Of a DNA stretch of 31,826 nt, positions 7,155 to 11,871 are shown piece after piece (position 1 is the first letter of the stretch; each line of letters begins with the position of its first letter). The stretch covers positions 1-31,826 of the forward strand of contig DATAAL010000832.1 in the NCBI GenBank assembly GCA_036260145.1, in the 5' to 3' direction. Source of the DNA: Longimicrobiaceae bacterium (GTDB lineage: Bacteria > Gemmatimonadota > Gemmatimonadetes > Longimicrobiales > Longimicrobiaceae). The position numbers were made by a program, and so were the translations under genes. The notes below the pieces were generated by a model. The model ran no database searches and was not told where the DNA came from. It saw nothing but the letters and a program-made list of their open reading frames with translations.

Positions 7155-7270
7155 GAGCCCCGGAAACAGCCCCGGGTCTCTTCCGCGGGCTGCGCGAGCC
7201 CCGCGATACCACTGCGGGTCTCCCGCAGCCGGAGGGAGCTTCACCGATACCGCCGGTGAGTCTCCCTCCG
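7155..7270. repeat. Three tandem imperfect palindromes (REP-like) with a shared GAG-C...T-CTC core
   Basis: A 7155-7180 gagccccgg-aaacagcc-ccgggtctc; B 7188-7230 ggctgcg-c-gagccccgc-gataccact-gcgggtctc-c-cgcagcc; C 7230-7270 cggagggagcttcacc-gataccgcc-ggtgagtctccctccg. Confidence 0.75.
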
Positions 7271-7474: not shown

Positions 7475-8578
7475 TTGAGTTCCGCTGATCCCGGCACCCC
7501 TTCCCTCCGCGACCGGCTCCTGGAGCGCATCCGGGCCGGGACGCGGAGGGCGGTCCCCGACGAGGAGTTCGACGCGCTGGCGCGGGCGGTGTTCGCGCAC
7601 CAGTACGCGCGCAACACCCCCTACCGCCTGTTCTGCGAGCGGCGGGGCGCCACGCCGGCGACCGTGGGACACTGGACGGAAATCCCTGCCGTCCCCACCG
7701 ACGCCTTCAAGGCCGCGGGGCTGGTGTGCGGGGACCCGGCGTCCGTCCGTACGGTGTTCCGGACCAGCGGGACCACGGCGGGCCCGGAGCGGCGGGGGGA
7801 GCATTACCTCCCCGACCTGGCGTTCTACGATGCGGCGCTCCGCGAGAGCTTCGCCGCCCACCTCCTCCCGGAGGGGGGGCGGATGCGGATGCTCTCGCTG
7901 ATCCGGCCGCCGGAGGAGGTCCCGGACTCCTCGCTCTCGCACATGGTCGGCGCGGTGGTGCGCGACCTCGGCGCGCCGGGGAGCGGGTACTTCGTCGGGG
8001 AGGTGGGGATCGACCACGCCGCGTTCGGGGCGGCGCTGCGGGACGCGGAGGCGCGGGGGGAGCCGGTCTGCGTCCTGGGCACCAGCTTCGCCTTCGTGCA
8101 CTGGCTGGAGGCCGTGGAGGAGGCCGGGGAGCGCTACGCCCTCCCGACCGGCTCGCGCATCATGGACACCGGCGGGTTCAAGGGACGCTCGCGGGAGGTG
8201 TCGCGCGAGGAGCTGTACGCGGCGCTGGGGGAGCGGCTGGGGGTGGGGACGGAGTGGTGCGTCAACGAGTACGGGATGACGGAGATGAGCTCGCAGTTCT
8301 ACGACGCCGTCGCGGGGGTCCCCGCCCCCCGCCTCCACCGCGCCCCGCCCTGGGTACGCTCCCGGGCCGTGGACCCGGAAACGCTCGACCTCCTCCCGGA
8401 GGGGGAGACCGGCGTCCTCCGCCACTGGGACCTCGCCAACCTACACTCCGTCATGGCCATCCAGACGGCGGACCTGGGCACCGTCGCCCCGGAGGGGGTC
8501 CGGCTGCTGGGGCGGGCGCGCGGAGCCGAGGCGCGGGGGTGCTCCATCGCCATGGACCAGTTCCTGGGGGCCTTGTAG
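7475..8578 (+). CDS. luxE: Acyl-protein synthetase, LuxE family
   Basis: IPAVPTDAFK, FRTSGTT (P-loop-like), LGTSFAF, IMDTGGFKG, NEYGMTEMSSQFY, and C-terminal LLGRARGAEARGCS with the acyl-accepting Cys. The TTG start is approximate. Confidence 0.88.
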   Translation: MSSADPGTPSLRDRLLERIRAGTRRAVPDEEFDALARAVFAHQYARNTPYRLFCERRGATPATVGHWTEIPAVPTDAFKAAGLVCGDPASVRTVFRTSGTTAGPERRGEHYLPDLAFYDAALRESFAAHLLPEGGRMRMLSLIRPPEEVPDSSLSHMVGAVVRDLGAPGSGYFVGEVGIDHAAFGAALRDAEARGEPVCVLGTSFAFVHWLEAVEEAGERYALPTGSRIMDTGGFKGRSREVSREELYAALGERLGVGTEWCVNEYGMTEMSSQFYDAVAGVPAPRLHRAPPWVRSRAVDPETLDLLPEGETGVLRHWDLANLHSVMAIQTADLGTVAPEGVRLLGRARGAEARGCSIAMDQFLGAL

Positions 8579-8602
8579 CGGGGCATACCCAAGTACGGCA
8601 GC

Positions 8603-9259
8603 TCAATGCTCGTCCCCGTACGCCTTCCCCTCCTCGTCCTCCACGATCCGCCGCAGCGCCTCCTCGAAGCTGGCCCCCTCGCTCATCGCCGCCGCCTGCG
8701 CCTCGATCCAGATCCCCCGCAGCACCACCTCCATCAGCGACAGCGACAGGTGCTCCCGCGTGCGGCGCAGCTCCGCCGCCCGGCGCGCCAGGGGGAGGAG
8801 CTCGTCGGGGATGTCCGCCTCGGGGTGGAGGTAGGCCGCCCCCGCCGTCTCCGGGGTCCTCCCGTCCCCCTTCTCCTGGGGCCGCTGCGGCGTGGGGGCG
8901 AACATCGCGGGGTCGCGGGCTACCCGCAGGGCGATGCTCCCCGGCCCGAACGGCTGCCACCACTCCACCAGCTTCCCGGAGAGCTCGTTCAGCACCCCCT
9001 CCACCGCCAGACGCACCGGGCTCTTGCGCGCGGGGGCGTGCCTCCGCCCGCGCTCCAGCACCAGGAGCAGGTCGGCCCCGGGCTGCTCGTGCGCGAACAT
9101 CTGGATCCAGCGGAGTGCGCGGTCCCGCGCCGTGGCCGGCCCCTCCCCCTGCAGGTCGAGCCGCCGGGTGGGCGGGTAGTGCCGCGCCTCGTACTCGCGG
9201 AACAGGTCGTTGAGATGCGTCAACGGGTCTCCCGATGCTGGCGGAACGAGCCTGGTCAT
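8603..9259 (-). CDS. Degenerate Smr-like domain fused to an unknown C-terminal helical domain
   Basis: RRLDLQG...A...ALRWI...LLLVLERG...SPVRLAVEGVL follows the Smr pattern LDLHG...IIHGKG...LK..V. Likely start MTRLVPP at 9259. Confidence 0.6.
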   Translation of the reverse strand: MTRLVPPASGDPLTHLNDLFREYEARHYPPTRRLDLQGEGPATARDRALRWIQMFAHEQPGADLLLVLERGRRHAPARKSPVRLAVEGVLNELSGKLVEWWQPFGPGSIALRVARDPAMFAPTPQRPQEKGDGRTPETAGAAYLHPEADIPDELLPLARRAAELRRTREHLSLSLMEVVLRGIWIEAQAAAMSEGASFEEALRRIVEDEEGKAYGDEH

Positions 9260-9274
9260 CCGGGGAACACGGAT

Positions 9275-9290
9275 TGCAGCGTCCGTGCCC
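9275..9290 (-). promoter_or_regulatory. Possible sigma54 promoter for the Smr-like gene
   Basis: Minus strand reads GGGCACG-GACG-CTGCA with exact -24/-12 spacing. It would give a very short leader to 9259. Confidence 0.45.
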
Positions 9291-9346
9291 TCCCGGCCGG
9301 ATGCACCCGGCGCGCGGCCGGTCTGACCAGAACCAGGGAGCAGCCG

Positions 9347-9754
9347 ATGGCACGCTACGATCGCAGCTACGATTACGGGCTCCGCGGGTACCGGGAGACC
9401 ACCTTCTTCCGCGGCGGACAGGGCGCCCGCCCGCGCGCCTGGGGGTACGATCGGGACTTCGCGTACCCGAGGACCGCGGGCGGAGGGTTCTCCAACCGTG
9501 TCACCGCGCGCTACAACCGCGACTACGCCTACGACCGCCCGTACCGCGGCTTCGAGCGCAACTACAACCCGTACGGCGGGGACCGGATCGGCCGGATCGG
9601 GGACATGCAGGACTACCTGCACGGCTACCACACCATCGGGGGGACGCACACCTCGCGGGGTGGGTTCCAGCCGCCGCACGAGGTACCGAGAGATCCGCTG
9701 CAGGACAACATGGCGAGCGGGTACGACTGGGACCTTCGCCGGGGCCGGTGGTAG
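9347..9754 (+). CDS. Tyr/Arg/Gly/Asp-rich low-complexity protein, predicted disordered (135 aa)
   Basis: AGGGAG RBS before the ATG at 9347. Repeated Y[DN]R[DSP][YF] motifs; no Lys, no Cys. Confidence 0.8.
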   Translation: MARYDRSYDYGLRGYRETTFFRGGQGARPRAWGYDRDFAYPRTAGGGFSNRVTARYNRDYAYDRPYRGFERNYNPYGGDRIGRIGDMQDYLHGYHTIGGTHTSRGGFQPPHEVPRDPLQDNMASGYDWDLRRGRW

Positions 9755-9781
9755 CGGTGGGATGCCGTGCCGGGTAAGGAC

Positions 9782-9817
9782 CGCGGGAGACCCGGGAACA
9801 GCCCCGGGTCTCCCGCG
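9782..9817. repeat. Perfect 15-bp palindrome, fourth member of the 7155-7270 family; possible bidirectional terminator
   Basis: cgcgggagacccggg-aacagc-cccgggtctcccgcg lies between the convergent stops at 9754 and 9866. Confidence 0.8.
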
Positions 9818-9865
9818 ATATCCCCGTCATGAGGAACACCGTCCCCGCATCACCCCCGATCGTAG

Positions 9866-11227
9866 TCACTCCTCCGCCTCCGTCTCCAGTTCGCTCAGCA
9901 GCGGGATCTCCCCCGCCCCCGCGCGCCCTCCACGCCTGCGGCGCGCCGGGGGGACGGGGTGCTCCGGGAACTCCACCTCCGCGCCGGAGTCGCCCAGGGA
10001 GCGGTACACCGCCTCCCCCGTGCGCTTCAGCGCCGCCATAGCCCTCCGTACCTCGTCCGGGGACAGGTCGGTCTCCACCAGCTCCAGGAGCACCTCCCGG
10101 TAGGATACCGCCCTCCCCCGGAACCTCCCGGCCAGGGTACGCGCCAGGCGGCTCACGTCCACCCCCCGCCCACCGGGGGGGAGGAGCGTGGCGTCCGGCT
10201 CCTCCGGGGCGAACAGCTCCAGCACCTCCGCCGGCTCCGCCGCCTCCTCCGCCCGGAAGGAGGTACCCAGCTCCGCCCGGTCCTCCACCCCGGCCTCCCG
10301 CGCCGCGCGGTTCAGCGCCAGCGCCCGCAGGGGGTCCCCGGTCACCAGGAACAGGTAGAGCGAGTCCGCGGGCTCGTCCGAGAGGTGTACCGGGAGGCGC
10401 TTCACCACCCACCCGGCGAGCTCCGCCAGCCGCTCCGCGTACCGCCCGGCGACCCGCGCCTCCGCCGCCCTCTCCCCTCCCTCCCGCTCCGCCTCGCGCC
10501 ACCGGTACACCCACTCGTAGCGCACGTCGCCCAGGAGGGCGGAGTACCCGTCCACCACCCGCCGGACGTGCGTGGGGAGGTCCGCCAGCGTGCTCCCCCG
10601 GTACCGGGCCTGCTTCTGGAGGTCGGCGTGGGGGAAGGAGAGGAGGAGGTCCGCTCCGCGTGCCCTGGCGAGGGTGCGCACCGCCGCGAGGGGGAGCTTC
10701 CCGGCCGCGGGTGGTGCCAGGAAGCAGAGCGCGTGGTCCGCGGACGCCACCCAGCGCGCCACCCGCTCCGCCGCCTCGCCGAAGGCGGCGTGCAGCAGCG
10801 CGATCTCCCCTGCCCCGAGCCCCGCGGGGTCGTCCACGCGGCGGACGCGCCCCCCGAGCCCCACCGCCTCCAGTTCCCGCTCCAGCCGCTCCACCTCCGC
10901 CGGATCCTCCTCCACCAGCACCGCCGTGGCGTGCAGGGGAGCGCGCGCTCCCGGGGCGCGCGCCGCGAGCCGCTCCAGCGCCCGGAGGCCGCGGAGCGCC
11001 GACCCCGCCCCGGCGCCACCCTGCCCCGCCCCCACCAGCGAGTGCCGCCCGCCCGAGTTGCAGAAGCCGTCCACGTACACCACCCGGAGCGGCGGGGGCT
11101 CCGTCCCCTCCTCCGGAGGCTTCGCGCTCCGCAGGCCCCGCGCGACCGCCTCCGACCACTCCGCCAGGTAGTGGTCCAGGATCTCGTGTGCGACGACGGT
11201 GGAGGGGTGCGGAGCGACCGGACTCAC
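9866..11227 (-). CDS. tcmP: TcmP-like (three-Cys-motif partner) methyltransferase-fold protein with a wHTH-like C-terminus, degenerate motifs
   Basis: AHEILDHYLAEW, VYVDGFCNSGG, GSALRGL, VLVEEDP, FLAPP...LP...DLLLSF parallel TcmP KHEILR.YL..W, YIDGFAGPG, GSPL, FIE.D, FLDPFG, EVLINF. GTG start at 11227. Confidence 0.65.
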   Translation of the reverse strand: MSPVAPHPSTVVAHEILDHYLAEWSEAVARGLRSAKPPEEGTEPPPLRVVYVDGFCNSGGRHSLVGAGQGGAGAGSALRGLRALERLAARAPGARAPLHATAVLVEEDPAEVERLERELEAVGLGGRVRRVDDPAGLGAGEIALLHAAFGEAAERVARWVASADHALCFLAPPAAGKLPLAAVRTLARARGADLLLSFPHADLQKQARYRGSTLADLPTHVRRVVDGYSALLGDVRYEWVYRWREAEREGGERAAEARVAGRYAERLAELAGWVVKRLPVHLSDEPADSLYLFLVTGDPLRALALNRAAREAGVEDRAELGTSFRAEEAAEPAEVLELFAPEEPDATLLPPGGRGVDVSRLARTLAGRFRGRAVSYREVLLELVETDLSPDEVRRAMAALKRTGEAVYRSLGDSGAEVEFPEHPVPPARRRRGGRAGAGEIPLLSELETEAEE

Positions 11228-11270
11228 GGACTTCGCCTTCGGGGTACCCGGCGCGGGGAGGGGACGACGA

Positions 11271-11299
11271 AGACTATCCCCGCCACCTACCCCAATCAA
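11271..11299 (-). promoter_or_regulatory. Sigma70-type promoter for the TcmP-like gene
   Basis: Minus strand TTGATT-N17-TAGTCT in a locally AT-richer patch, about 45 nt upstream of 11227. Confidence 0.65.
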
Positions 11300-11412
11300 G
11301 TCCGAAAGTCCCGGGGCGCCCGCGCCCGCGGAACGCGCCGTGCTGCAGGATCCGGCGGTGCGACGGGTCCTCCGTCGAGGGAGCAAACGGAGAAGCGCTT
11401 GGAGGCGAGACA

Positions 11413-11871
11413 ATGGCGGAAACGACGACCACGGGGCGCAGGGCGACGGTGCGCTGCGCCTCCTGCGGCAAGCTGAACCGGGTGGACCTGGCGCGTGCCG
11501 CCGACCGGCCGAAGTGCGGAAGCTGCGGCCGGCCGATCCTTCTGGACCGCCCGCAGGTGCTGACGGACGCGGACTTCGACCGGGTGGTGGGGGACGCCGG
11601 GGTCCCTGTGCTGGTGGACTTCTACGCCGACTGGTGCGGGCCGTGCAAGATCATGGCGCCCACCATCGACCAGCTCGCCCGCGACCGGATGGGGAGCGCC
11701 CTGGTGGCCAAGGTGGATACCGACCGCAACCCCGGGGTCGCCGCGCGCTTCGGGATCCGCTCCATCCCCACCCTGATCGCCTTCCGCGGCGGCCGGGAGG
11801 TGGGGCGCGAGCTGGGGGCGGTCCCCCGGCCGCGGCTGGACGCGCTCCTCGACGCGGCCGGGCGCGGGTGA
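11413..11871 (+). CDS. trxC: Thioredoxin 2 with N-terminal zinc finger
   Basis: CASC...NRV...CGSC followed by VDFYADWCGPCK and IRSIPTL; GGAGG RBS at 11401. Confidence 0.93.
   Translation: MAETTTTGRRATVRCASCGKLNRVDLARAADRPKCGSCGRPILLDRPQVLTDADFDRVVGDAGVPVLVDFYADWCGPCKIMAPTIDQLARDRMGSALVAKVDTDRNPGVAARFGIRSIPTLIAFRGGREVGRELGAVPRPRLDALLDAAGRG

Follow-up and report, generated by a model that had tools for sequence, protein, structure and literature searches.

We analyzed a 31,826-nucleotide stretch of DNA (the window) from a Longimicrobiaceae bacterium, in which an open reading frame at positions 9347 to 9754 on the forward strand, stop codon included, encodes a 135-residue protein (P0001) rich in Tyr, Arg, Gly and Asp, referred to below as the Tyr/Arg protein. 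Translation yields 22 Arg, 21 Gly, 15 Tyr and 13 Asp residues and neither Lys nor Cys, in exact agreement with the length and composition given in the original prediction, which had described a stand-alone, low-complexity Tyr/Arg "sticker" protein. All six of the short repeats named there (YDRSY, YDRDF, YNRDY, YDRPY, FERNY and YDWDL) were found, as [YF][DEN][RW]x[YFL] pentads at residues 4, 34, 56, 62, 69 and 126, with Y-[DN]-R-x-[YF] as the unit that recurs. This number is far above expectation: shuffles that preserved composition contained a mean of 0.11 pentads, and none of 20,000 contained six or more. The protein had also been said to lack a hydrophobic core, which is borne out by an Ile, Leu, Val and Met content of 8.9% and by a charge-hydropathy value on the disordered side of the boundary.

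Because the G+C content of the window is 72.6%, long chance open reading frames are common within it, as spurious long frames generally are in high-GC DNA, and a 358-residue frame on the minus strand overlaps the 9347-9754 region. The Tyr/Arg frame might then be such a chance frame or the shadow of an opposite-strand gene. Against this, its GC3 of 0.91 and GC2 of 0.54 resemble those of confident genes nearby; dN/dS is <0.5 (0.23-0.50 in comparisons with six congeneric orthologues); and orthologues are present in 52 genomes, with indels that stay in frame and with a conserved ATG, ribosome binding site and promoter box. The conservation data refute a chance origin, the probability of which we consider close to nil. 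These results show that the Tyr/Arg frame is a real gene under purifying selection; it is single-copy in its own genome.

Searched with a family profile, 52 of 61 Longimicrobiaceae genomes proved to carry the gene, as did 29 of the 31 high-quality ones and 17 of 20 genera (the tallies for this family take in one unpublished genome, G002). In a phylum-wide sample, no match came from 27 genomes of the two sister families within the order, and a single marginal one (E 7e-4) came from roughly 170 other Gemmatimonadota genomes. A protein search returned 127 homologues of 74-237 residues, all annotated as hypothetical, and every named one came from a Longimicrobiaceae or Gemmatimonadota assembly. 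When 1.84 billion representative proteins were searched exhaustively with the profile, only 64 clusters, all of 41-201 residues, and no remote relatives were recovered. Longer, fused forms were absent among the matches listed, which is weak evidence that none exist. The Tyr/Arg gene is thus a family-level orphan, near-universal within Longimicrobiaceae.

The unusual composition belongs to the family as a whole. Mean contents are 18% Arg, 11.4% Tyr, 15% Gly and 9% Asp, with 9.6% aliphatic residues, compared with 2.4% Tyr, 24% Ile, Leu, Val and Met, and 1.4% Lys in a proteome proxy. Neither Phe nor Trp is enriched across the family, which makes Tyr the only aromatic residue in excess. Lys is absent from 145 of 158 members; since the proteome proxy itself holds just 1.4% Lys, this is in part a genome-wide G+C effect, yet it is also a family trait. 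Net charge is about +6 for the protein studied here and averages +7 over the family.

Alignment of the family revealed 18 invariant columns grouped in three blocks. The N-terminal block (M-A-R-Y-D-R-x-Y-D-Y-G-L-R-G-Y-R-E; 9347-9397, forward strand) starts at Met1, with D9, G11, L12, R13 and G14 invariant, and its motif occurs in 155 of 168 family sequences. The middle block (N-R-V-T-A-R-Y-N-x-D-Y; 9494-9526, forward), in which R51, T53, Y56, N57 and Y60 are invariant, was matched in 146 of 168. The C-terminal block, defined from the alignment at 9560-9661 (forward), reads N-Y-N-P-Y-G-G-D-R-x-x-R-I-G-D followed at a distance by Y-x-T-x-G-G-T-x-T-x-R-G; TxGGTxTxRG was matched in 148 of the 168 sequences, and all three motifs occur together in 128. 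Between and after the blocks, length varies widely: the first linker spans 6-95 residues, the second 30-46 and the tail 13-70. Through these changes the Arg, Gly, Tyr, Asp and Pro composition of linkers and tail stays constant, so that the sticker-like character originally proposed is retained family-wide even where linker lengths differ greatly. Sticker-and-spacer sequences evolve in this way.

Two variants depart from this plan. In a g14 sub-clade (G013, G024, G021 and G043; loci L022, L029, L030 and L031), the Tyr/Arg gene has become separated from the neighboring gene described below, and the protein carries an N-terminal extension that repeats M-R-Y-D-x-G-[FY]-G-R-G-Y ahead of YD[YF]GLRG. 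In G022, of genus g17 (locus L032, G022:C47, about 1679-1861), a truncated gene encodes 61 residues that keep the MARYDYGLRG N-terminus and a YGGRYPDEI tail and lack the middle and C-terminal blocks.

The Tyr/Arg protein is predicted to be disordered when alone. AlphaFold2 (AF2), given a 37-sequence alignment, returned a mean pLDDT of 45 and a pTM of 0.15, with every residue at or below 70; it draws one low-confidence beta-hairpin at residues 92-104 (strands 92-95 and 101-104). The charge-hydropathy value is 0.354 against a boundary of 0.429. No known globular family emerged: there were zero matches in Pfam or NCBIfam at E ≤ 10, zero in PADLOC or PHROGs even at permissive thresholds, and zero when the family profile was compared with PDB sequences at E ≤ 10. 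The ESM Atlas held no stored model and offered only compositional look-alikes at sub-threshold scores of 0.82-0.84, the third of which, at 0.82 and below the 0.9 line, was an SWFGD cluster. An Rfam scan of 8500-10000 gave only sub-threshold matches, to Guanidine-II (E 0.12) and mir-877 (E 0.34), which we take as chance. Short motifs within the protein probably become ordered on a partner.

The strong ribosome binding site originally noted is AGGGAG at 9335-9340 (forward strand), 6 nt upstream of the ATG, and the orthologous loci that were inspected have a purine-rich site in the corresponding position. Upstream of it, 68 nt before the ATG, is a -24/-12 box of sigma-54 type (GGAAC-ACGGA-TTGCA; 9264-9278, forward), which would place the start of transcription near 9288-9289. 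In an upstream alignment of 16 orthologous loci, GGGAAC-N5-(A/C)TTGCA was the sole conserved block besides the ribosome binding site; in two of these loci the -24 element differs by one base. Boxes of this type are present in 28 orthologous loci, 43-80 nt before the ATG and oriented toward the Tyr/Arg gene, and accompany it whether it is divergent from its neighbor, in tandem with it, separated or truncated: the box was relocated together with the gene in the g14 sub-clade and is kept by the 61-residue form in G022. The box at our locus matches 9 of the 12 specified positions of the consensus TGGCAC-N5-TTGCW, and its GG and GC elements lie ten bases apart, as the sigma-54 consensus demands.

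The genome encodes RpoN (PF04552, E 1.4e-64) and about 24 enhancer-binding activators (24 strong PF00158 matches), none of them on the contig studied here. Genome-wide, GG[AC]AC-Nx-TTGC[AT] occurs 34 times at x = 5 and 7-18 times at other spacings, and 25 of the 34 N5 sites are followed within 140 nt by a ribosome binding site and an open reading frame. Because the box is conserved, RpoN and its activators are present and site number peaks at the N5 spacing, sigma-54 dependence of the Tyr/Arg gene is well supported at the level of sequence, and its expression is likely to be conditional given the conserved promoter box of this type. That GGAAC is instead a -35 element recognized by an ECF sigma factor is less likely: TTGCA is conserved here at a constant 5-nt spacing, which ECF promoters can do without. 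A scan for sigma-70 promoters and intrinsic terminators found none.

The N5 sites also suggest that this genome holds a sizeable sigma-54 regulon. Strict GG[AC]AC-N5-TTGC[AT] sites lie, for example, at C784:2668, C744:2352, C741:2168, C28:1613 and C832:5088. Judged by their N-terminal sequences, the frames downstream of strict N5 sites include those for a DnaK-like chaperone, a PtsN-like protein and a glycogen-debranching-like enzyme, as well as several small hydrophilic proteins or lipoproteins and an HU-like protein whose tail is rich in Lys, Ala and Ser.

Downstream of the Tyr/Arg gene, the original prediction had noted a clean hairpin after the stop codon. A perfect 15-bp stem is indeed present at 9782-9817, between convergent genes, and the 91-nt stretch that contains it folds at -51 kcal/mol (z = -4.0). 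The hairpin is not specific to this gene, however, and is instead a copy of a dispersed REP-like repeat: its core, CCGGRAACAGCCCCGGGTCTC, occurs in 40 copies counted across the genome whatever their intergenic status, compared with 0 for the reversed control, and another copy lies at 7160-7180. Because the core is dispersed in this way, the hairpin, which has no T tract, is not a terminator built for the Tyr/Arg gene. It may nevertheless act as a two-way terminator between the convergent genes.

The convergent gene (9866-11413, minus strand) encodes 515 residues and matches the NCBIfam profile for TcmP, the three-Cys-motif partner protein (TIGR04474, E 1.7e-16). Beyond the divergent neighbor on the other side lies a gene resembling LuxE-family acyl-protein synthetases (7475-8578, forward; PF04443, E 8e-20), which occupies that place in one congener only (L009). 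In other genomes, no TcmP-like gene was found next to the Tyr/Arg gene. We rejected a three-gene module that includes the TcmP-like gene, as neither the TcmP-like nor the LuxE-like gene is syntenic with the conserved pair beyond the closest relatives.

The second member of that pair, P0169, is divergent from the Tyr/Arg gene (8603-9223, minus strand). Its best start, at 9223, gives a protein of 206 residues and an intergenic region of 123 bp. We obtained a confident AF2 model (pLDDT 83) in which residues 19-103 form an Smr fold, followed by a disordered linker, whose G-R-T-x-x-T-A-G core is invariant, and by a helical domain at the C-terminus. The top five Foldseek matches were all Smr domains, and a VIA search against Smr structures gave Z scores of 11.1 (2zqe; rmsd 1.9 over 75 of 80 residues), 9.4 (3qd7), 9.2 (3fau) and 8.6. 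At the sequence level P0169 did not match the Pfam Smr profile PF01713 at E ≤ 10, and the catalytic DxH (LDLHG) and HGxG motifs are absent from the family alignment: LDLQG(EG) stands in place of LDLHG and ERGR(R) in place of the HGKG-type loop, with Gln at least 90% conserved at the DLQG site and E27, G28 and R58 invariant. P0169 thus shares its fold with Smr-domain proteins such as SmrB, YdaL and the Smr domain of MutS2, and differs from them in its replaced motifs, its failure to match PF01713 and its additional C-terminal helical domain. Its Smr fold is catalytically degenerate. A genome-wide PF01713 search did not hit P0169 but recovered two canonical Smr genes, at C620:1830-2054 (E 1.5e-23) and C571:2310-2504 (E 2.1e-11).

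Smr domains are nucleic-acid- and ribosome-binding modules, and SmrB and MutS2 bind collided ribosomes, as in PDB entries 7qgr and 8r55, both of which are among the fold matches of P0169. Folds of the TusA/SirA-like and IF3-C types also resemble that of P0169, so the ribosome is not its only possible target.

A GG-N10-GC motif on the minus strand (GGGCAC-GGACG-CTGCA; 9275-9290) points toward the Smr-fold gene and shares a palindromic TGCA with the -12 element of the Tyr/Arg gene. In g14 loci, CGG(C/T)CC-N5-C(G/C)TGCA lies 31-53 nt before the start of the partner. The Smr-fold gene may also be sigma-54 dependent.

P0169 has 348 homologues, and the best 120 of the 348 are at least 62% identical to it; those that are named all come from Longimicrobiaceae or Gemmatimonadota assemblies. 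A partner of this type is present in 58 of 61 Longimicrobiaceae genomes, and outside the family only weak partial matches were found. The two genes are adjacent in 43 of the 52 genomes that carry the Tyr/Arg gene, divergently in 40 and in a tandem, operon-like layout with the Tyr/Arg gene first in three, all of genus g17; contig ends make adjacency undecidable in four. Consecutive NCBI locus tags for homologues of the pair were found in five assemblies. Linkage is kept across at least 17 genera, even through the change in orientation, and both genes are missing from the reduced genome G004. In five g14 genomes the two genes lie on different contigs, and in the three of these that were checked (G021, G024 and G043) the Tyr/Arg gene sits deep inside a long contig. 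The partner is present in G007 (L035) and G025 (L033), where the Tyr/Arg gene was detected neither beside it nor elsewhere. Given this separation in g14 and the solitary partner in G007 and G025, neither gene strictly needs the other nearby. Taken together, coupling to the Smr-fold gene in 43 of 52 genomes and the three near-invariant blocks contradict the description of the Tyr/Arg protein as a stand-alone low-complexity protein. The conserved sigma-54-type box, the linkage to the Smr-fold gene and the identity of the hairpin as a copy of a dispersed repeat are all new here.

Three groups of known proteins invite comparison. With the low-complexity regions of FUS and hnRNP proteins the Tyr/Arg protein shares predicted disorder, enrichment in Tyr, Arg and Gly, RG/RGG dipeptides and a composition conserved through indels. 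Unlike them it is bacterial, free-standing, 135 residues long and built around three near-invariant blocks, and homology was not detected. Its family has spacers rich in Arg, Gly, Pro and Asp with little Ser or Gln, whereas those of FUS are uncharged and rich in Ser, Gln and Gly; FUS-type [G/S]Y[G/S] repeats with uncharged Gly/Ser/Gln spacers were not found in the family. Bacterial hydrophilins and general-stress proteins (KGG-repeat YciG/GsiB, and SWFGD) are likewise small, Gly-rich, hydrophilic, conditionally expressed and coreless. KGG-repeat and SWFGD-type proteins are rich in Lys, Gln and Ser, poor in aromatic residues and dependent on sigma-S or sigma-B, and the Tyr/Arg protein differs from these families in matching none of the curated profiles, in its Tyr and Arg content and in its sigma-54-type promoter. 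Stm1 and SERBP1, disordered ribosome-preservation factors, are comparable only in how they might work: like the Tyr/Arg protein, they are basic, rich in Arg and Gly and unstructured in isolation, and they contain short conserved stretches; those of the Tyr/Arg protein could similarly order on a large RNA-protein partner. There is no homology to them, the net charge of about +6 is much lower than theirs, and the link to the ribosome runs only through the Smr-fold neighbor.

The reading that we favor, tentatively and at less than even confidence, is that the Tyr/Arg protein, expressed conditionally, is a disordered adaptor which, together with its Smr-fold partner, acts on RNA or ribosomes. It would be produced only when a sigma-54 activator fires, and would then work jointly with the neighboring Smr-fold protein. 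The three blocks would be docking motifs that fold on binding either the Smr-fold partner or that partner's RNA or ribosome target, while the Arg/Gly/Tyr/Asp/Pro linkers would provide numerous weak contacts of the Tyr-Arg and Arg-RNA types. In response to a particular signal, nutritional or stress-related, the pair would then serve as an adaptor or scaffold directed at RNA or ribosomes. Direct binding of the partner, the RNA or ribosome target and the inducing signal are all inferred in this model, which we prefer because Smr domains bind nucleic acid and ribosomes and because a composition rich in Tyr, Arg and Gly is typical of RNA-binding disordered regions. Confinement of both genes to Longimicrobiaceae and their joint absence from G004 speak for it. 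Their separation in five g14 genomes, the partner's occurrence alone in G007 and G025 and a net charge that is modest for an RNA binder speak against it.

A possible, if doubtful, alternative remains close to the original prediction: the Tyr/Arg protein would self-associate through Tyr-Arg stickers and form condensates or a protective glass or gel by itself, perhaps with RNA, during starvation or drying, and its position beside the Smr-fold gene would be incidental or merely regulatory. Tyr-Arg cation-pi contacts drive the phase separation of FUS (PMC5927716). Family-wide enrichment in Tyr (more than four times the proteome proxy), Arg and Gly suits such a role, as do linkers that keep their composition as they change in length, the repeated pentad, the absence of a predicted fold and a promoter that is likely to be conditional; papers in which Longimicrobiaceae and desiccation are mentioned together also include studies of Atacama and Namib desert soils. 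Condensate formation is plausible. Yet the three near-invariant blocks exceed what generic condensation needs, as does a second linker held to 30-46 residues; the spacers contain much Pro and charged residues (Asp, Arg), where those of FUS are rich in Gly, Ser and Gln; and linkage to the Smr-fold gene has survived a change of orientation over at least 17 genera. Self-association and an adaptor role are not mutually exclusive, but self-association by itself explains neither the linkage nor the invariant motifs. The blocks might instead form a small beta-structure on oligomerization, or a cross-beta core, and so build a structural oligomer or fiber invisible to single-chain prediction, which we consider quite improbable. 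The middle block does alternate like an amphipathic strand (R-V-T-A-R-Y-N-R-D-Y), and the Y-x-T-x-G-G-T-x-T-x-R-G segment of the C-terminal block is hairpin-like and coincides with the two strands drawn by AF2; against this weigh pLDDT values that fail to exceed 70 even with an informative alignment, the lack of a sequence match among solved structures and the extreme variability of the first linker. Very improbable is an exported Tyr-rich adhesive or a cross-linked component of the wall or coat. Mussel foot protein 3 and the Bacillus spore-coat proteins CotC and CotU have compositions similar to that of the Tyr/Arg protein, and it is on composition (Tyr, Arg, Gly, Asn and Asp) that this idea draws; the N-terminus, conserved from Met1 (MARYD...), is polar and has no signal peptide or hydrophobic segment, and no conserved secretion or cross-linking gene lies near the Tyr/Arg gene.

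Combining elements of the adaptor and self-association readings, one can envisage a two-gene module invented within Longimicrobiaceae, in which a sigma-54-induced sticker protein and a catalytically dead Smr-fold ribosome binder would reversibly condense ribosomes or mRNA, with limitation of nutrients or water as the trigger. As a joint claim, trigger included, this is unlikely; if true, the module would be a lineage-specific bacterial counterpart of the stress-granule or ribosome-preservation systems of eukaryotes. The biology of bacterial condensates leans on few model proteins, and to these the Tyr/Arg family adds a compact, free-standing protein with about 170 natural variants and a first linker of widely variable length, together with a sigma-54 switch predicted from sequence and a candidate structured partner in the pseudo-Smr protein. 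Two questions thereby become directly testable: what docking motifs and sticker composition each contribute to the work of a disordered protein in bacteria, and what role a catalytically degenerate Smr fold plays. Should the Tyr/Arg protein prove merely a minor stress protein, its value would be modest. The two genes provide an example of an orphan pair at the level of a bacterial family, near-universal in a lineage reported from dryland soils.
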